DNA of 64,000 nucleotides from Thermodesulfobacteriota bacterium (GTDB taxonomy: Bacteria > Desulfobacterota > Desulfobulbia > Desulfobulbales > SURF-16), in the NCBI GenBank assembly GCA_049323935.1, contig JBMONN010000009.1:11216-75215 (forward strand), in the 5' to 3' direction. Positions 3,876-60,038 of this stretch are shown one piece after another. Each line of letters opens with the position of its first letter. Positions within the stretch are counted from its first letter, which is position 1. Below the pieces are notes generated by a model. That model was not told the DNA's origin. It worked only from the letters and a program-made list of their open reading frames with translations, and made no database searches. The position numbers and the translations under genes are program-made.

Positions 3876-5684
3876 ATGATGCCTCCCAATCGTCCTTTTC
3901 ATGTCGAGCTGATCTCCATGCCGTGGGCCGCCTTTCATCGGCCCTCGGTCCAACTCGGGGCGCTGGCCGCTTTTCTGCGCAGCAAAGATGCAGGCGTGCA
4001 GGTGCGTTGCCGGCATCCCTCTCTGGGGCTGGCCCGTGATCTGGGTAAAGATCTCTATCACTCCATTTCTGCCAATGTCTGGGTCTGTGAGGCCCTCTAT
4101 GCTGCTCTCCTTTTTCCGGAGCAGCGTGAGCAGGCCCGTCGTTTGGCGGAACGGGAGTTCCGGGCCGGCGACTCCACCGTTTCCTGTGAGTTTGATCGGG
4201 TCTGCGCCCTGCTGGAGAAAAATATTGCCGAGTGGCTGGAAAAAACGGAGTGGGCGACTATCGATCTCGTCGGATTTTCCGTCTGCTTCAACCAGCTCTT
4301 TGCCACCCTGGCCACGGTCCGCGCCCTCAAAGAGATCCGGCCTGATCTGCCGGTGGTGCTCGGCGGCTCCGCCTGTCACGCCGGGGCGGCCCCGGCGTTT
4401 TTCCGTTTGTTCTCCGTAGATTACCTGATCAGCGGCGAAGGAGAGGAGCCGCTCTTTTCCCTGTGTCGCCATCTGGCCGGGCAATCGCATAAACTGCATG
4501 CCCGGGTGCATCATGCCGACCGTGGCGAGGCGACGACAGCGGGGAATGCTGACGATCAGCTCGACATGGCACTGCTGCCCCGGCCCGACTATGATGACTA
4601 TTTTCGCGAGATGGAGACCATTTTTCCTGGCCGACCATTTGTCCCGACCCTGCCGGTGGAGTTTTCCCGTGGCTGCTGGTGGCGGAAGTGCACCTTCTGT
4701 AATCTCAATCTCCAGTGGCACGGTTACCGCTGGAAAAAGGCGGAAAACATGGCGGCCGAGGTCGCAGCTCTGGCCGCGCGCCACCGGAGCCTCGATTTTG
4801 CCTTTACCGATAACGCCCTGCCGCCGGCTGAGGCACTCGCCTTCTTTGCCGCCATGGCGGCTTCAGGCCGGGATTATCGTTTTTTCGGGGAGATCCGCGC
4901 CGATTATCGCGGCGCCCGCCTGAGCCGGAGCCGCGCCGGCGGCCTGACCGCGGTGCAGGTCGGCATCGAGGCCTTCAGCAACTCCCTGCTGAGGCGATTT
5001 GCCAAGGGGGTGACGGTGATCGACAATCTGGCGATCATGCGTGATGCCGCGGCCTCCGGCGTGGTACTCGACGGCAACCTGATTGTCGAATTTCCAGGCA
5101 GCACTGGACAGGAGGTGGAAGAGACTCTGATGGTCCTCGATTTTGTCCTGCCCTTTCACCCCCTGACCACCGCCTCTTTTTTTCTCGGTCACGGCAGCCC
5201 GGTGGACTGCCGGGCCGCCGACCATGGCATTCTCGCCACCATGGTCCATCCCCGTTTTGCCGCCATGCTGCCCGCGGCCATTGCCAAAGCAATTCCTTTT
5301 CTCATCAAGGGCTATCGCGGTGACCGCGGCCAGCAGCGACGGCTGTGGAGGCCGGTGGTGGACAAGGTGCGCAACTGGCGACACTTTCATGAAAAACAGC
5401 GCCCGCGGGGCAATTCCCTGCTCTGCCGGCGCGATGGCGGTGATTTTCTCATCATCCGTCAGGTTCGGGATAACGGCGAGGTGCAGTATCATCGGCTGGC
5501 CGGGCTGTCGCGGCGCATCTATCACGCCTGCGACGAGATCGTCTCCCTGGCCGAGCTGGCCGCCCTCTTTCCGGCCCTGCCGGTGGATCGCATCGAGGGT
5601 TTTTTGCTTGATCTTGTAGAGAAACGTCTGGTGTTTCGGGACGGGGATCGTTTTCTCGCCCTGGCGGCCCGGGAAAGCGGGTGA
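3876..5684 (+). CDS. B12-binding-domain radical SAM enzyme, RiPP-maturase-like, with C-terminal winged-helix-like tail
   Basis: N-terminal B12-binding-like region (DLVGFSVCFNQL...PVVLGGSACH). Cys triad FSRGCWWRKCTFCNLN. C-terminal ~90 aa (LLCRRDGGDFLIIRQV...SLAELAALF...GFLLDLVEKRLV) resembles a PqqD/RRE-type module. Confidence 0.75.
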   Translation: MMPPNRPFHVELISMPWAAFHRPSVQLGALAAFLRSKDAGVQVRCRHPSLGLARDLGKDLYHSISANVWVCEALYAALLFPEQREQARRLAEREFRAGDSTVSCEFDRVCALLEKNIAEWLEKTEWATIDLVGFSVCFNQLFATLATVRALKEIRPDLPVVLGGSACHAGAAPAFFRLFSVDYLISGEGEEPLFSLCRHLAGQSHKLHARVHHADRGEATTAGNADDQLDMALLPRPDYDDYFREMETIFPGRPFVPTLPVEFSRGCWWRKCTFCNLNLQWHGYRWKKAENMAAEVAALAARHRSLDFAFTDNALPPAEALAFFAAMAASGRDYRFFGEIRADYRGARLSRSRAGGLTAVQVGIEAFSNSLLRRFAKGVTVIDNLAIMRDAAASGVVLDGNLIVEFPGSTGQEVEETLMVLDFVLPFHPLTTASFFLGHGSPVDCRAADHGILATMVHPRFAAMLPAAIAKAIPFLIKGYRGDRGQQRRLWRPVVDKVRNWRHFHEKQRPRGNSLLCRRDGGDFLIIRQVRDNGEVQYHRLAGLSRRIYHACDEIVSLAELAALFPALPVDRIEGFLLDLVEKRLVFRDGDRFLALAARESG

Positions 5685-31305: not shown

Positions 31306-32628
31306 ATGCAGAAAAAAATTTTACAGAAATTCGTGCCGGTGATGATTTTTTTTGCGTTGCTGGTCGGCTGCGGCGCCAAAAATGGTGAGGTAGCGCCGGC
31401 GGCCGGCAATGACGTGGGGAAAACCGTTGTCCAGAAGGAGCAGAACGTCTACAAGGGCGAGGTGACGGGCAAGTCAGAGAAGGCAAAAACCATTTCCATG
31501 AAGGTTGGCAAAGGCGAGGATGCCAAGAGCGTCATGGTCAAGTTTGACGACCAGACCACCGGCCTCGAGTTTGCCGAAAAGGGGCAGGCAGCCATCGTCG
31601 AATACCGGATGGTCGGCTCGGACAAGGTTGCCACGGTCATTAAACCGAAACTGGCCGAGCTGCCCAAAGGAACCTCCGAGGCAAAGACCGATTATGTCGC
31701 CGCTCTCATCGCCAAGGGCGGCGCCTATCAGCTCATCGATTCCCGGCCGGCGGGGCGCTTCCATGCCGGCTCTCTGCCGACTGCAGTCAGTATCCCGGTG
31801 GATCAGCTGAAGAAGGAAGGGGCGGGCCTGCTGCCCAAGGATAAAAACACTGAACTGATCTTTTTCTGCGGAGGGCCCACCTGAGGGATGAGCACCGATT
31901 CCGCCGGTCTGGCGGTAAAAGCAGGATACAAGAACGTCAAGGTTTATCTCGAAGGCGCGCCCGGCTGGCAGAAGGCCGGCAATTATGTCGTGGCCAGCAA
32001 TAATTTTGTCGAGAAGGGTAATATCGTCCTCGTTGATCTGCGCAGTGCGGCCGAGTACAATCAGGGGCATATTCCGAGGGCCTACAGCATCCCCTTTGCC
32101 GAACTGGAAGACGCCGAGGATGATTTCCCGGAGAACAAGACGGCGCCCATCGTCTTTTACGGGGACAACGCGGTCAAGGCCTTCAAGATGGCGAAAAAAT
32201 GGGGTTACAAGGGATCCGCTGTCTACGAAGGCGGCATTGCGGCATGGACTACGGCCGGCAAAAACCTCGATACCTCCGCCTCCCCGGATGAAATCGTCTG
32301 GGTCCGTATCCTTGGTCCCGGAGAGATCAGCACCGCTGATTTTCAGAAGGTCATCGATAATCAGCCGGCCGACAAGCTTATTCTCGATGTGCGCACCAAC
32401 GACGAGGTCAAGGACGGCATGTTCCCCGGTGCCGCCCATATCCCGTTGGATGAGCTTGGCGCAAAGATGAATACCCTGCCCAAGGACAGGGAGATTCTTG
32501 TCCACTGCACCACCGGCGCCCGGGCGGAAATGGCCTATGACGAGCTGAAGAAATCCGGCTTCACAGTCCGCTATGTCGTCTGTAATGTGGAGTGTGATGC
32601 CGATGATGGGTGTGAAATCGTTGAATAG
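31306..32628 (+). CDS. Triple-rhodanese lipoprotein, predicted selenoprotein (Sec at codon 193, TGA 31882-31884)
   Basis: Lipobox LLVGC. Track ORFs 31228..31884 and 31888..32628 share a frame and are separated only by TGA-GGG. Read-through [40 protein letters not shown] aligns with FYCKGPK-C-SKSKVAANAATALGYTNVMIYNEGLPAWAGKG of the neighbouring paralogue. The third domain has the canonical loop HCTTGARA. Confidence 0.8.
31882..31915 (+). promoter_or_regulatory. UGA + candidate bacterial SECIS hairpin
   Basis: 16 nt after the UGA: CCGCC-GGUCU-GGCGG (31901-31915), a 5-bp GC stem with a GGUCU apical loop. It can extend by two A-U pairs if U31916 is bulged. Confidence 0.55.
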
Positions 32629-55737: not shown

Positions 55738-55932
55738 ATGGATATCGTTGTTGGCAATACCCCCGTTATCAGGAAAGATCCGGAAAAAAATCCCTTACTG
55801 GAGAAGGGCGGCAAAAAAAAAGAGAGACGCCGCAATCGGCAGGACCGGCGGAAAAGTGTGCGGGATGGGGTCATTGTTTCGCTGTCCGTTCCCAATGACA
55901 GGAGGAAAAGTCCCGAGCGTCGTCGGGGCTGA
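55738..55932 (+). CDS. Small highly basic protein with DRRK repeats (hypothetical)
   Basis: GGAGG 6 nt upstream of the ATG. 64 aa. ...KKKERRRNRQDRRKSVRDGVIVSLSVPNDRRKSPERRRG. No family assigned. Confidence 0.4.
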   Translation: MDIVVGNTPVIRKDPEKNPLLEKGGKKKERRRNRQDRRKSVRDGVIVSLSVPNDRRKSPERRRG

Positions 55933-55973
55933 TCCTTCGGAAAAGGGCGACACTGCGGTTGGTTGAAGGAAAC

Positions 55974-56333
55974 TCAGTGGATGATGGAGTCATCCGGCAG
56001 GATGGCGATGCGATTGACCAGCAGCAGGATGTCTTTTTTGGTTTTCGGCGGCACGTCGACAAATTTTACTCCCATGCCCCGATCGATTTCCGGTCCGTCC
56101 AGGTTGACCCACGCCACCTCCGCACTGACCTTGATCTCCTTGGACAGGCCGATGGCAAAATCCACCAGAACCCTTTCTCCCCTGGAGACCGGCCGTGCGG
56201 TGTTGATGAACATGCCGTCCGCCGAGATGTCACGGGTAAAGGAGATCAGATAGTCACCTTCATGCAGGACGGTGACGTCAAACTGAACGGGAATGCGGGT
56301 GCTTTTCCGTTTTTCTTTTTTGTTGCTTGTCAT
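55974..56333 (-). CDS. PilZ domain protein
   Basis: RKSTRIPV (RxxxR) and DISADGMF (DxSxxG) c-di-GMP-binding motifs. Confidence 0.8.
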   Translation of the reverse strand: MTSNKKEKRKSTRIPVQFDVTVLHEGDYLISFTRDISADGMFINTARPVSRGERVLVDFAIGLSKEIKVSAEVAWVNLDGPEIDRGMGVKFVDVPPKTKKDILLLVNRIAILPDDSIIH

Positions 56334-56414
56334 GGCCGGGCTAAAAAAAGTTGAAGGGACAAAAGATATTCGTATTTTCTACCACATCGCCGGCGAGAAG
56401 ACAAAAAAATCCCT

Positions 56415-56771
56415 TTATTTTTTGAAAAAAACATAGGCGGCCAGGCCGACCAGGATAACGGCGAAGATCTTTTTGAAACCGGCGGTGGAGATGTGCTCCA
56501 CCAGGCGGGCGCCAAGCTGGGCACCGGCGATGCCGCCGAGACCAAGGAGGATGCCGGCCCGGTAATCAACATTGGCCAGTTTGTTGTGGGCAAGCAGGGC
56601 GGAGAGGGCGATGACCAGGATCGCCACGAACGAGGTGCCCACCGCCTTTTGCGCCGTATAGCCGAGATAAAGGAGGAGGGGGACGACGAGAAAGCCGCCG
56701 CCCAGTCCGGTGAAGGCGGCACCGATGCCGACGACGATGCCGCTGCAGAGCAGCAGAAAAGATTGACTCAT
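56415..56771 (-). CDS. Half-size TauE/SafE-family membrane protein (118 aa)
   Basis: GIGAAFTGLGGGFLVVPLLLYLG...KAVGTS and GGIAGAQLGARL motifs. Three to four TM helices only. ATGA overlap with the comM stop. Confidence 0.7.
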   Translation of the reverse strand: MSQSFLLLCSGIVVGIGAAFTGLGGGFLVVPLLLYLGYTAQKAVGTSFVAILVIALSALLAHNKLANVDYRAGILLGLGGIAGAQLGARLVEHISTAGFKKIFAVILVGLAAYVFFKK

Positions 56772-58303
56772 GGTAAACGGTTCCTTTCCAGTCGCCGGTA
56801 TTGGATGGCCTCGGCGACGTGGTCGGGACCGATGGCTTCCTGCCCGGCCAGGTCGGCGATGGTGCGGGCGATTTTTAATATGCGGTGATAGGCACGGGCA
56901 GAGAGGCCGAGCCGCGCCATCCCCTTTTCCAGCAGGGCAAGGGAACCTCTGTCTAGCACGCAGAATTTCTTGAGATCCCGGCTGCCCATCTGGCTGTTGC
57001 TGAAAAGCCCTTTTCTGCCCCGGAAGCGGCGGTGCTGGATCGCCCGGGCCGCCATCACCCGTTGCTTGATCTCCCGCGAACTCTCCCCCTCCTTGGCCGC
57101 TGCCACCTCCTGAAAGGGAACCGCCGGTACCTCCAGGTGAAGGTCGATGCGGTCGAGCAGCGGGCCGGAGAGCTTTTCCTCGTAACGTCTGATTTGCGGC
57201 GGGGTGCAGGAGCAGACGTGGCGGGCATCGCCGAGATAGCCGCACGGACACGGATTGAGGGCCGCCACCAGCACGAAACGGGCCGGAAAGGTAAGGCTGG
57301 CCGAGGCGCGGGCAATGGTCACCCGGCCGTCTTCCAGCGGTTGCCGTAAAACCTCCAGGACATTTTTCTTGAATTCCGGCAGCTCATCGAGAAAGAGGAC
57401 GCCGTTATGGGCCAGGGAAACCTCGCCCGGCCGGGGGATGTTGCCGCCGCCGATCAGTCCGGCATCGGAAATGGTGTGATGGGGGGCGCGGAAGGGCCGT
57501 TGCAGCATCAGGCTGCACCCTTCCGGCAGCAGACCGCAGACGCTGTAGATCTTGGTGGTTTCCAGCGCCTCCTCGAAGCTCAGATCCGGCAGGATGGTCG
57601 GCAGGCGGCGGGACAGCATGGTCTTGCCCGATCCCGGCGGACCGCTCAACAGCACGTTGTGGTCGCCGGCGGCCGCCACCTCCAGGGCGCGTTTGACATG
57701 CTCCTGACCCTTGACCTCGCAAAAGTCGATCGGGTAGGCGTCCTCCCCGGCCCGCAGAGCGTCCAGGTCGGCGACCGAGGAGGGGATCTCGAGCCGGCTC
57801 GCCAGAAAATCCACCGCCTGATGAAGAAAGCTGATGCCGATGACAGCAATGCCCTGCACTACAGCCGCTTCCGGGGCATTGGCAGCCGGCACCAGAATGC
57901 CGGTGCGTCCTTGTTTGCGGGCGGCCAGCACCATGGGCAGAATGCCGGGTACGGGCCGAATGGCGCCGTCCAGGGAAAGTTCGCCGACCATGGCATAGAA
58001 GGGAAGTTGGTCATGGGGGAGAATCTCTTCGGCGGCCAGGATACCGACGGCAATGGGCAGATCGAAACCGGTACCAGCCTTTTTGATGTCCGCGGGGGCG
58101 AGATTGACCGTGATCTTTTTACCGGGAAACTCATAGCCGCTGTTCTTGATGGCGGCCCGCACCCGGTCCTTGCTTTCCCGCACCGCCCCTTCGGCCAGCC
58201 CCACCGTGGAGAAAAGCGGCAGACCGAAGACGATATCCACCTCCACCTCCACCGGCAGGGCGTCGACACCGAAAACCGTGCTGGTATGAATCTTGGCGAG
58301 CAT
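56768..58303 (-). CDS. comM: YifB/ComM-family Mg-chelatase-like AAA+ ATPase
   Basis: VEVDI..GLP.F..VGL....V.ES..RV..A..NSG..FP..KITVNLAPAD.KK.G..FDLP.A. Walker A GPPGSGKTM. HNGVLFLDELPEF. C-terminal SARAYHRILKIARTIADL. Confidence 0.92.
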   Translation of the reverse strand: MLAKIHTSTVFGVDALPVEVEVDIVFGLPLFSTVGLAEGAVRESKDRVRAAIKNSGYEFPGKKITVNLAPADIKKAGTGFDLPIAVGILAAEEILPHDQLPFYAMVGELSLDGAIRPVPGILPMVLAARKQGRTGILVPAANAPEAAVVQGIAVIGISFLHQAVDFLASRLEIPSSVADLDALRAGEDAYPIDFCEVKGQEHVKRALEVAAAGDHNVLLSGPPGSGKTMLSRRLPTILPDLSFEEALETTKIYSVCGLLPEGCSLMLQRPFRAPHHTISDAGLIGGGNIPRPGEVSLAHNGVLFLDELPEFKKNVLEVLRQPLEDGRVTIARASASLTFPARFVLVAALNPCPCGYLGDARHVCSCTPPQIRRYEEKLSGPLLDRIDLHLEVPAVPFQEVAAAKEGESSREIKQRVMAARAIQHRRFRGRKGLFSNSQMGSRDLKKFCVLDRGSLALLEKGMARLGLSARAYHRILKIARTIADLAGQEAIGPDHVAEAIQYRRLERNRLP

Positions 58304-58310
58304 TCTTTGA

Positions 58311-58655
58311 TCAGCCTTTGCCCGCCAGCGCCTCGTACATGGCTGTATTGAAGCCCAGGTAAAATGTCCTGCCGATCCGCAGGGTCGGGGCGCGCAGGGT
58401 GCCGCTGCGGCCGAGCGCCCCTTTCAGGATCTCCTCTCGGTTGTCGGTGTCCGGGGTGAACTCTTTTGTTTTCCGGCCACTGGCAATGAGGATCGTCTCG
58501 CCGCCGGAGAGCATTGACCAGGCGGTTTCCCGATCAATAGGGTGTTTCCGTGCATCGACTTCGGTGATGATTTCCACTTCAGAACTCCCAAGAGCCTCCT
58601 GGGCTTTCGCGCAGGACGTTCAGCCCTTTCTGAAATAGCCCCAATCGATTTTCAT
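58311..58655 (-). CDS. ArsC/Spx-family thioredoxin-fold protein, predicted selenoprotein (UxxC; Sec at codon 12, TGA 58622..58620)
   Basis: The track ORF starts at an internal GTG (58577). The frame continues upstream through one TGA to ATG 58655: MKIDWGYFRKG-U-TSCAKAQEALGSSEVEIITEVDARKHPI... U occupies the first Cys of the family's N-terminal CxxC-type motif. AAGGAG lies 10 nt upstream of the ATG. An alternative ATG is at 58685. Confidence 0.65.
58587..58622 (-). promoter_or_regulatory. UGA + candidate bacterial SECIS hairpin
   Basis: 16 nt after the UGA on the mRNA: CCCAGG-AGGCU-CUUGGG (58603..58587), 6 bp including one G-U, with a GG-containing apical loop. Confidence 0.45.
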
Positions 58656-58808
58656 GTCATTCGTTCTCCTTTGACCTCGAAACATGGCGTCCCCCAGCGC
58701 GGGTGAACCTGCCCGACTGCTTCATCTTTTTCTTTTTTCTACCATACTGAAATGCAAAAGATAAGGGGTGATGTTGCCCCCAGGGAAAAAATCAGATATT
58801 TTACATCC

Positions 58809-59369
58809 ATGTCATTGATAAAATTCGGCTGGATTCTGTTGCGGGAAGGACTCATCCAGAGAAAACAGATGGAGAATATCCTTAATCTCCAGGAGCGGCA
58901 CCAGGACCGGCTTTTTGGTGAACTGGCCGTCCACTATTTCGCTGTCCCCGAAGAGGAGGTCGAGGCGGTTTTCGCCAATCATGTTCTGCTTCCCTTCTGC
59001 CGCAACTGGTTTCTGGAACAACTGACACGGCGCATCACCATTACCGCGCTGGAGGGGCGGCCGTTCATCGTCGCTGTTGATCTTGTCCTGGCTTCTTTTA
59101 CCCGCAGGATCATCCGCGCCACCACCTATACGCCGGGTGACCGGGAATGCGTCCCGGTGTCGGGCAACGTCAGTCTGCTGGTCAACGGCACCTTTGCCGA
59201 AGTCGTCATCCGCACCGCCATCAACGAATCCCTCATCTTTGCCGATGTGCAGTTTGATTTTGTCAGGGAACGATTGGAGATGACGCTGGTCAATCCTCAT
59301 CTCTTCACCGAGGCAAAGATGCGACTCAATCAACTGCATAAAAAACATGCAGCAACCCAAATGCCATAG
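58809..59369 (+). CDS. Hypothetical protein with T2SS-E/MshEN-like N-terminal helix motif
   Basis: KFGWILLREGLIQRKQMENILNLQ resembles the LG.ILL..GLI...QL..AL..Q motif. The rest is unassigned. Start uncertain (58752 or 58809). No clear RBS. Confidence 0.45.
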   Translation: MSLIKFGWILLREGLIQRKQMENILNLQERHQDRLFGELAVHYFAVPEEEVEAVFANHVLLPFCRNWFLEQLTRRITITALEGRPFIVAVDLVLASFTRRIIRATTYTPGDRECVPVSGNVSLLVNGTFAEVVIRTAINESLIFADVQFDFVRERLEMTLVNPHLFTEAKMRLNQLHKKHAATQMP

Positions 59370-59388: not shown

Positions 59389-59604
59389 ATGCCGGAAACG
59401 ATAAAACACTTTCAACAGTATCCCTTCAAACAGGGAGACAAGATCCACATCATTGACGGTCGGCGCCGGGGTGACTGGCTGGTGGCCGCGGTTGACGAGA
59501 AAAAGGTGACCCTGCGTTGCCCGGTAAGCGGGCGGGAATTTTCCTGGGACCGCTTCTGTTATTTTGTCACGGAAGAGGAGCAGCCGTGGCCGCACCGCAC
59601 ATGA
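59389..59604 (+). CDS. Small hypothetical protein (71 aa) coupled to the CULT gene
   Basis: GGAG 6 nt before ATG 59389. Its stop overlaps the next ATG (ATGA at 59601-59604). Confidence 0.45.
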   Translation: MPETIKHFQQYPFKQGDKIHIIDGRRRGDWLVAAVDEKKVTLRCPVSGREFSWDRFCYFVTEEEQPWPHRT

Positions 59605-60038
59605 TGAGGGCAACCAGCCGGGATTACCGGTGTCCTCTGCCTGCCCTGGCACTCAATAAGAACGGCGTCCGCCAGGGCAGGGTTCGACCAGGCCGGCAAA
59701 CCGACGAGCAAGGTGATGACGGCACGGGGAACGGCTGGTTCTGCTGCCGGGTCTGCCGGACGAAAATCGTTCCCCGTTCCCGCATGATCGAGGTGAACGG
59801 CAGCCATCTCCATGTCTTTGCCAACCCCCATGGCAAGGTTTTCGAGATCAGCTGTTTTTCCGCGGCGCCCGGCTGTGTCGATCACGGGGTGCCGACCACG
59901 GAGTGCACCTGGTTTGCAGGCTGCGCCTGGCGTTTTTCCCTCTGCGTCACCTGTTCGGCCCATCTTGGCTGGCGCTATCAGTCCCCCCTGTCCGGTGTTT
60001 TCTGGGGGTTGATCCTGGCCGCGCTTGTTGAGTCGTGA
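59601..60038 (+). CDS. Cereblon-like CULT domain protein
   Basis: CCRVC ... FANPHGKVFEISCF ... TWFAGCAWRFSLCVTCSAHLGWRY ... FWGLILAAL. Two CxxC zinc pairs and the W-x5-W-x13-W-x-Y aromatic cage have cereblon spacing. Confidence 0.75.
   Translation: MMRATSRDYRCPLPALALNKNGVRQGRVRPGRQTDEQGDDGTGNGWFCCRVCRTKIVPRSRMIEVNGSHLHVFANPHGKVFEISCFSAAPGCVDHGVPTTECTWFAGCAWRFSLCVTCSAHLGWRYQSPLSGVFWGLILAALVES

Follow-up and report, generated by a model that had tools for sequence, protein, structure and literature searches.

The closest described relatives of the gene treated here come from a survey of Global Ocean Sampling (GOS) data, in which a selenoprotein family was reported as "Arsenate reductase 2, cd03032, UxxC", with 42 selenocysteine (Sec) and 238 cysteine (Cys) sequences (Zhang and Gladyshev, 2008; PMC2398784). 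The UxxS "arsenate reductase" selenoprotein known from the Sargasso Sea survey is a different family, and a 2026 review lists the UxxC family again under the selenoproteins as "Arsenate reductase-like protein", UxxC (PMC13188914). Here we analyze one such gene in a stretch of 64,000 nucleotides (nt), hereafter the window, from a Thermodesulfobacteriota bacterium of the Desulfobulbia (assembly GCA_049323935.1, contig JBMONN010000009.1, positions 11,216 to 75,215), following up a first-pass annotation made from the sequence alone. The gene occupies positions 58311..58655 of the window on the minus strand and comprises 114 codons, the 12th of them for Sec, followed by a TGA stop, as indicated by its translation and by its match to the NCBIfam family NF041106. 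With high confidence we consider it a genuine NF041106 selenoprotein gene, in which UGA is recoded as Sec at residue 12 of a 114-amino-acid protein of the ArsC/Spx superfamily. It is an ordinary member of a known family, and the result is a correction of the annotation and not a discovery, because the family was described in 2008 and has already been curated.

On the minus strand the reading frame opens with an ATG at 58655..58653, passes through a single TGA at 58622..58620 and ends at a TGA stop at 58313..58311. A Shine-Dalgarno sequence, AAGGAG, can be read at 58666..58671 (minus strand), with a spacer of 10 nt to the ATG. The open reading frame (ORF) listed for this place, 58311..58577 on the same strand, starts with GTG, codes for 88 amino acids and corresponds to the tail of the 114-codon gene. 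The read-through translation starts MKIDWGYFRKG-*-TSCAKAQEALG..., with the TGA at residue 12. All of this had been given in the first-pass annotation (coordinates, 88-amino-acid ORF with its GTG start, upstream TGA, ATG at 58655, AAGGAG and translation) and proved exact on re-reading. The 12th codon, the in-frame UGA at 58620..58622 (minus strand), almost certainly encodes selenocysteine (U12); it opens the U-T-S-C redox motif, in a column where relatives have TGA or a Cys codon, and the complete UxxC motif of the window protein reads G-U-T-S-C. The TGC codon at 58611..58613 (minus strand) specifies Cys15, the presumed resolving Cys of UxxC, which is near-invariant in the family alignment and aligns with Cys13 of Spx. 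Closer to the C-terminus, the codons at 58386..58412 (minus strand) encode the family motif G82-R-S-G-T-L-R-A-P90, made up of invariant alignment columns and aligned with the "GLLRRP" segment of Spx.

When Cys is written in place of U, the 114-amino-acid product scores 116.9 bits against NF041106, "ArsC family (seleno)protein" (cutoff 85), and its residues 3-107 cover profile positions 1-107 of 107. The 88-amino-acid form, in contrast, reaches 75.3 bits, below the cutoff of 85, covers profile positions 26-107 only and is devoid of strand beta-1 and of the redox motif. The protein homologues fall into two classes, one of 81-92 amino acids with varying internal starts and another of full-length proteins (112-136 amino acids) that carry G-C-x-S-C, the motif reading GC[ATP]SC in these Cys homologues. 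Judged by sequence, the 81-92-amino-acid database entries are gene-caller truncations of the 114-amino-acid selenoprotein. The other way to read them would be that the TGA is a true stop, which would leave an 11-residue leader, or nothing, followed by an independent 88-amino-acid protein initiated at the GTG at 58577, or else a pseudogene. Such a reading has on its side that the short form is what gene callers predict, both at this locus and in dozens of database entries (81-92 amino acids), and that no stop codon is commoner in the window than TGA, which ends 15 of 31 confident ORFs, the selenoprotein gene itself included. The short form, however, misses the beta-1 strand and redox motif and the family cutoff, the internal starts chosen by the gene callers differ among homologues, and the Cys homologues are full length; the notion that the short form might be a complete family, which had been considered at the outset, is contradicted by these same data. 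As TGA terminates 15 of the 31 confident ORFs, this very gene among them, we also ruled out a genome-wide reassignment of UGA (genetic code 4 or 25).

The comparison of related loci speaks even more directly about the codon. Genome and metagenome collections yielded 84 related loci, with 81 classifiable and 4 unclassifiable at the aligned codon. As for the question of whether orthologues have Cys or TGA at residue 12, raised together with the initial claim, the aligned codon is TGA in 72/81 classifiable loci and TGT or TGC in 9/81. Among the TGA loci, identity to the query lies between 36% and 96%. The nearest relatives belong to the Desulfobulbia/Thermodesulfobacteriota, and TGA is found at the same codon, within the same architecture, in loci L001-L005, including the cultured Desulforhopalus singaporensis DSM 12130. 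The peptide that precedes the TGA is conserved across loci as x-I-D-W-x-Y-x-R-x-G, and the nine codons before the TGA show entropies of 0.68/0.49/1.30 at the first, second and third codon positions, i.e., third-position wobble, comparable figures just after the TGA being 0.74/0.77/1.42, with values of ~1.9 at all three positions further upstream. An ATG is located 33-39 nt upstream of the TGA in 57/64 loci, and a Shine-Dalgarno-like 4-mer lies 4-18 nt before the start in 53/64 Sec-form loci. Conservation on both flanks of the UGA and a Sec/Cys pair among homologues, by which bacterial selenoproteins are recognized, are both found here. Retention of TGA at one single codon over 72 loci of such divergence is unlike a pseudogene, and the upstream codons evolve as coding sequence, so that we give next to no credence to a true stop at this position and retain the recoded UGA as our reading.

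The UGA is followed by a SECIS-like hairpin (SECIS, selenocysteine insertion sequence) at 58582..58608 on the minus strand, identified by folding and covariation. It has a stem of 58603..58597 with 58593..58587, a GGC loop at 58596..58594 and a 3-bp lower stem of 58608..58606 with 58584..58582. The hairpin had been noted at the start as lying 16 nt after the UGA, with 6 base pairs (bp) and a 5-nt loop; the position is right, while RNAfold gives CCCAGGA-GGC-UCUUGGG, with 7 bp and a GGC triloop. The bacterial SECIS model foresees an apical loop of 3-9 nt, an upper stem of 4-16 bp, G in the first two loop positions, a UGA-to-loop distance of 16-37 nt and a minimum free energy <= -7.5 kcal/mol (PMC13188914). 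The window hairpin lies within these limits for 4/4 published criteria (loop GGC, 7 bp, spacing 23 nt, -7.9 kcal/mol), in line with the SECIS prediction that had been suggested for this segment. No comparable hairpin is present downstream of the same triplet at the gene end (TGA, 58313..58311). A permissive Rfam scan of 58200..58800 returned chance snoRNA-like matches only, and no Rfam family for the hairpin. In mechanistic terms, translation would start at the ATG at 58655, the hairpin at 58603..58587, with its G-first triloop 23 nt past the UGA, would recruit SelB carrying Sec-tRNASec, and selenocysteine would be inserted as residue 12 at the UGA at 58622..58620.

Arbitrary TGA triplets of the window pass the same SECIS criteria at a background rate of 5-10%, and a shuffle test is uninformative for one sequence; for this reason we relied on covariation, synonymous recoding and the background TGA rate instead. 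For covariation, 65 Sec-form sequences (64 distinct rows) were aligned without gaps over 48 columns. Within this alignment the helix formed by columns 19-26 with 30-37 has 70.9% of its cells paired, including 47 compensatory double-change cells; 0/500 column shuffles score as high and every slid register scores lower. The stems differ by lineage at the same place (CCCAGGA/UCUUGGG, GCUCAAAA/UUUUGAGC, GCACAG/CUGUGC, and GCGCGGGA/UUUUCGCGC). The codons for A-Q-E-x-L-G contain the stem, for which reason synonymous recoding was used as a control; the natural Sec-form hairpin regions are on average 3.1 kcal/mol more stable than their synonymous recodings (p = 6.5e-12, for sequences that are not independent). 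Moreover, the best hairpin falls at a spacing of 22-24 in 24/65 Sec forms, vs 1% of background TGAs.

Several observations count against the selenoprotein reading. The 66-nt region, compared with its dinucleotide shuffles, gives z = -0.01, i.e., the single hairpin is without significance, and even against synonymous recodings the window's own sequence is only modestly distinguished (z ~ -1.3). Strict perfect-stem criteria are passed by 30/65 Sec forms, several others missing the energy threshold narrowly, at -7.1 kcal/mol. The close Cys forms L006-L010 and L013 retain the hairpin, so part of the pairing may stem from the conserved peptide A-Q-E-x-L-G. Pfam PF03960 (ArsC) gives no match to the window protein at E<=1, and the profile check of the ArsC/Spx assignment is accordingly split, with the read-through product accepted by NF041106 and the Pfam family failing to appear; distant Cys homologues (P0087 and P0101) do carry precomputed PF03960 matches, and the ArsC/Spx link is based on NF041106, on the profile match to Spx structures and on the fold search. 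In the literature examined we met no experiment on any member of the NF041106 family. Finally, the 64-kb window contains no tRNA, hence no tRNA-Sec, and there is no SelA, SelB or SelD among the 28 of its ORFs that we annotated. Overall, the significance of gene and hairpin rests on the comparative evidence, the signal of the single sequence being within chance.

The missing Sec machinery in the window would fit a read-through of the UGA as something other than Sec, by near-cognate Trp or Cys insertion or by a suppressor tRNA, in an organism without a Sec pathway, and two database homologues (P0010 and P0013) are indeed translated with Trp at the Sec column. Yet the DNA matching P0013 (L038/L039) has TGA at that column, as does L004, which is similar to P0010. 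Since the corresponding DNA has TGA, the Trp calls are a product of the code applied by the gene caller, probably one with UGA=Trp; besides truncation, this is a second route by which the selenoprotein is mis-annotated. The column, furthermore, pairs only with Cys, which is the signature of Sec, and the UGA is followed by a covarying hairpin of the SECIS model.

The same window holds a second Cys-aligned in-frame TGA with a similarly placed hairpin, as had been pointed out from the beginning, and it is real. It is found in a rhodanese-domain gene at 31306..32628 (plus strand), where the TGA at 31882..31884 lies in FFCGGPT-U-GMS (a CxxxxU motif). All homologues that span the site have Cys there (CGGPTCGMS, CGGLKCKLS), and most database homologues of the gene are a fragment of 245-251 amino acids downstream of the TGA. 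Its hairpin, CCGCC-GGUCU-GGCGG, begins 16 nt after the UGA, has -8.2 kcal/mol and a spacing of 21, and passes the bacterial SECIS (bSECIS) criteria. There is a weak resemblance between the UGA-bearing rhodanese domain and the rhodanese portion of TsoB, a selenoprotein (NF045694, UxxxxU). The encoded protein contains multiple rhodanese domains and a putative lipoprotein-like N-terminus.

Desulfotalea psychrophila belongs to the Desulfobulbales. An ArsC-like selenoprotein has been recorded in this species in the literature, and the Thermodesulfobacteriota are among the most selenoprotein-rich bacteria (PMC13188914). From the second candidate gene and the selenoprotein-rich lineage we infer that the organism has the Sec trait. 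Both lines of evidence stand against read-through without Sec, to which we attach very little likelihood. Taken together, the selenoprotein and rhodanese genes indicate, as far as sequences can, that the organism decodes UGA as Sec.

Regarding the protein itself, the family profile compared with all PDB sequences retrieves Spx first (1z3e, 6ghb, 3gfk, 3l78; E ~ 9e-6), followed by weaker matches to the putative ArsC 2m46 (4.7e-3), YffB 1rw1 (7.5e-3) and glutaredoxins. In the profile alignment the family G-[U/C]-x-S-C falls on C10-T-S-C13 of Spx, with U12 on Cys10, which bears out the earlier proposal that residue 12 is the position of the N-terminal redox Cys, and the family GTLRAP...G[FY]N falls on GLLRRP...VGYN of Spx. 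The AlphaFold model of the Cys homologue P0003 (predicted local distance difference test, pLDDT, 93.7; predicted template-modeling score, pTM, 0.87) shows a thioredoxin-type arrangement, in which residue C12 is at the N-terminus of a helix (13-22), directly after a strand (5-8), and the middle region (54-66) forms a beta-hairpin of strands 54-59 and 62-66. Foldseek places Spx at the top of its PDB matches (prob 1.00), then the ArsC-family structures 3gkx and 3fz4 (function unknown), YffB 1rw1 and Grx/NrdH. Here two more points have to be set on the opposing side, namely that the structure was predicted for P0003, a 58%-identical Cys homologue of equal length, instead of the window protein, and that the Foldseek template-modeling (TM) scores are modest, ~0.5, which indicates a divergent middle region. 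With these data the 114-amino-acid product is predicted to be a protein with the thioredoxin-type fold of the ArsC/Spx superfamily. In such a fold U12 would sit at the N-terminus of helix alpha-1, with C15 one turn on; U12 would act as the nucleophile on an oxidized substrate and C15 would resolve the intermediate as a selenenylsulfide, as motif and fold suggest. The most likely chemistry would be that of a selenol/thiol redox couple with the UxxC oxidoreductase pattern.

Spx, a redox regulator of Firmicutes that binds RNA polymerase, is thus the nearest solved relative by profile as well as by fold, and its C10xxC13 switch aligns exactly with U12xxC15, just as its "GLLRRP...VGYN" aligns with "GTLRAP...LGFN" of the window protein. 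This raises the question of whether the window protein could be a redox-sensing regulator of the Spx kind, binding RNA polymerase and switched by U12-x-x-C15, and not a catalytic oxidoreductase. The differences are considerable. The window protein has Sec in place of Cys and obtains 15.4 bits on the Spx/MgsR model TIGR01617, whose cutoff is 75.05, besides the TM-scores of only ~0.5. The Gly52-Arg60 region of Spx is its contact with the alpha C-terminal domain (alpha-CTD) of RNA polymerase. The family segment aligned to the Gly52 region is variable in the alignment and predicted as beta-strand in the P0003 model, within a middle subdomain that is predicted as a beta-hairpin. No conserved regulatory gene context was found in the related loci either, and a regulatory role of this kind seems unlikely to us; the selenol/thiol oxidoreductase remains our choice.

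The distribution of Sec and Cys forms adds an evolutionary side to the comparison. In a neighbor-joining tree of the sampled loci the Cys forms make up three separate lineages, each lying within the Sec forms. The lineage of L006-L010 and L013 (with TGT or TGC) is sister to the Sec-form L011, and L006-L010 and L011 have comM synteny in common. The hairpin that these close Cys forms retain, GCCCAGGAGUCUCUUGGGC, stands at the SECIS position (~3034-3081 in L006-L009) and may be a fossil SECIS left after a Sec-to-Cys conversion; L021 and L060, which are distant Cys forms, have no hairpin there. Sec-to-Cys replacements have been described as uncommon in bacteria, and two remnant SECIS-like structures have been shown (Zhang et al., 2006). 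If true, a repeated loss of Sec to Cys would run counter to the reported bacterial trend, in which Cys-to-Sec is dominant. We put repeated conversion forward as a hypothesis, because the locus sample was seeded with one Sec form and one conserved motif and is biased. We regard as speculative, with the odds leaning clearly against them, both a scenario in which Sec is ancestral and the Cys forms are derived and, more boldly, a role of the protein as a redox sensor that is based on selenium and acts on RNA polymerase, an idea that arises from Spx being the closest solved relative.

Downstream of the selenoprotein gene, also on the minus strand, there is a comM/yifB-type Mg-chelatase-like AAA+ ATPase gene (56768..58303; Pfam Mg_chelatase, ChlI and Mg_chelatase_C), with its ATG 7 nt past the stop of the selenoprotein gene. 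It is followed by a gene for a half-length TauE/SafE-family membrane protein of 118 amino acids (56415..56771, minus strand; Pfam TauE positions 2-111 of 237), the start of which overlaps the comM stop in ATGA. By their junction geometry, the three genes (selenoprotein, comM and TauE half-gene) are probably co-transcribed. The operon that had been proposed with comM and the half TauE is therefore compatible with the junctions, but its conservation is limited to the closest clade. Only in L001-L003 and L005-L011 is the family gene followed by comM, whether the locus has Sec or Cys, and the TauE half-gene is restricted to the closest relatives (L002, L003 and L005); no neighbor is conserved family-wide across all related loci. 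We rejected the operon as evidence of function, and consider it a feature of the lineage that provides no functional clue, because the linkage is confined to that clade. Within 55900..58900, a scan turned up no promoter of the sigma-70 type and nothing beyond weak terminator-like sites, which was of no help in defining the operon.

On the other side of the gene, a divergent ORF at 58752..59366 (plus strand, 205 amino acids), without Pfam match, adjoins the selenoprotein gene also in L001, L002, L005, L008 and L010, with 58-98% identity. The ORF at 59517..60035 (plus strand) contains two CxxC pairs and gives a weak match to a Yippee/Mis18-type zinc-binding domain (E = 4.9e-4, below cutoff); in L007, L009, L011 and L013 the family gene has a homologue of this ORF upstream. 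Far from these genes, at 3876..5681 (plus strand), there is a radical S-adenosylmethionine (SAM) C-methyltransferase for the maturation of ribosomally synthesized and post-translationally modified peptides (RiPPs), with 338 bits on TIGR03975 (cutoff 282); this points to a locus for RiPP biosynthesis close to the window start.

The practical value of these findings is in annotation. The 88-amino-acid gene of the track and many entries of 81-92 amino acids are truncated products, and with the corrected call this Desulfobulbia genome gains a selenoprotein. The comparative set (72 Sec and 9 Cys loci, the covarying SECIS, GRSGTLRAP, and Spx as nearest structure) could be useful in planning experiments, and what is known about Sec decoding itself is left unchanged.

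It remains to place the window protein among the selenoproteins and redox proteins already described. The published and curated names of its family read "arsenate reductase-like", and it shares its superfamily with ArsC, from which one could propose a true glutaredoxin-coupled arsenate reductase of the ArsC type, with Sec in place of the catalytic Cys. This we find improbable. No arsenate-reductase model, e.g., TIGR00014 (glutaredoxin-coupled ArsC), is among the NCBIfam matches of the window protein at E<=1, and ars genes neither adjoin the gene in the window nor recur beside the family gene in 80 related loci. In addition, it is another published selenoprotein that matches ArsC proper. This one, "Arsenate reductase 1" (UxxS; pfam03960/TIGR00014; Sargasso Sea, GOS), known from sequence analysis only, is of the same superfamily and has Sec at the same N-terminal nucleophile position, but it has no Cys for resolution and counts as a family of its own, and the window protein matches neither PF03960 nor TIGR00014.

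With proteins of the glutaredoxin/NrdH type, and with Uxx-star glutaredoxin-like selenoproteins, the selenol/thiol oxidoreductase that we favor has in common the thioredoxin fold and a redox motif placed where helix alpha-1 begins. The glutaredoxin-type models, PF00462 (19.1 bits, cutoff 22.9, and the only match in the Pfam scan), TIGR02196 and NF041212, give weak matches, all below their cutoffs, and the C-terminal GRSGTLRAP...G[FY]N block is ArsC/Spx-like, unlike glutaredoxin. The best counterpart is the family from which we started, since NF041106 is "Arsenate reductase 2 (cd03032, UxxC)", and the window protein shares with it the UxxC motif with one Sec, the Cys homologues and the SECIS-like hairpin just after the UGA. 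There is no difference of substance between them, the comM/TauE neighborhood being specific to the Desulfobulbia clade of the window.

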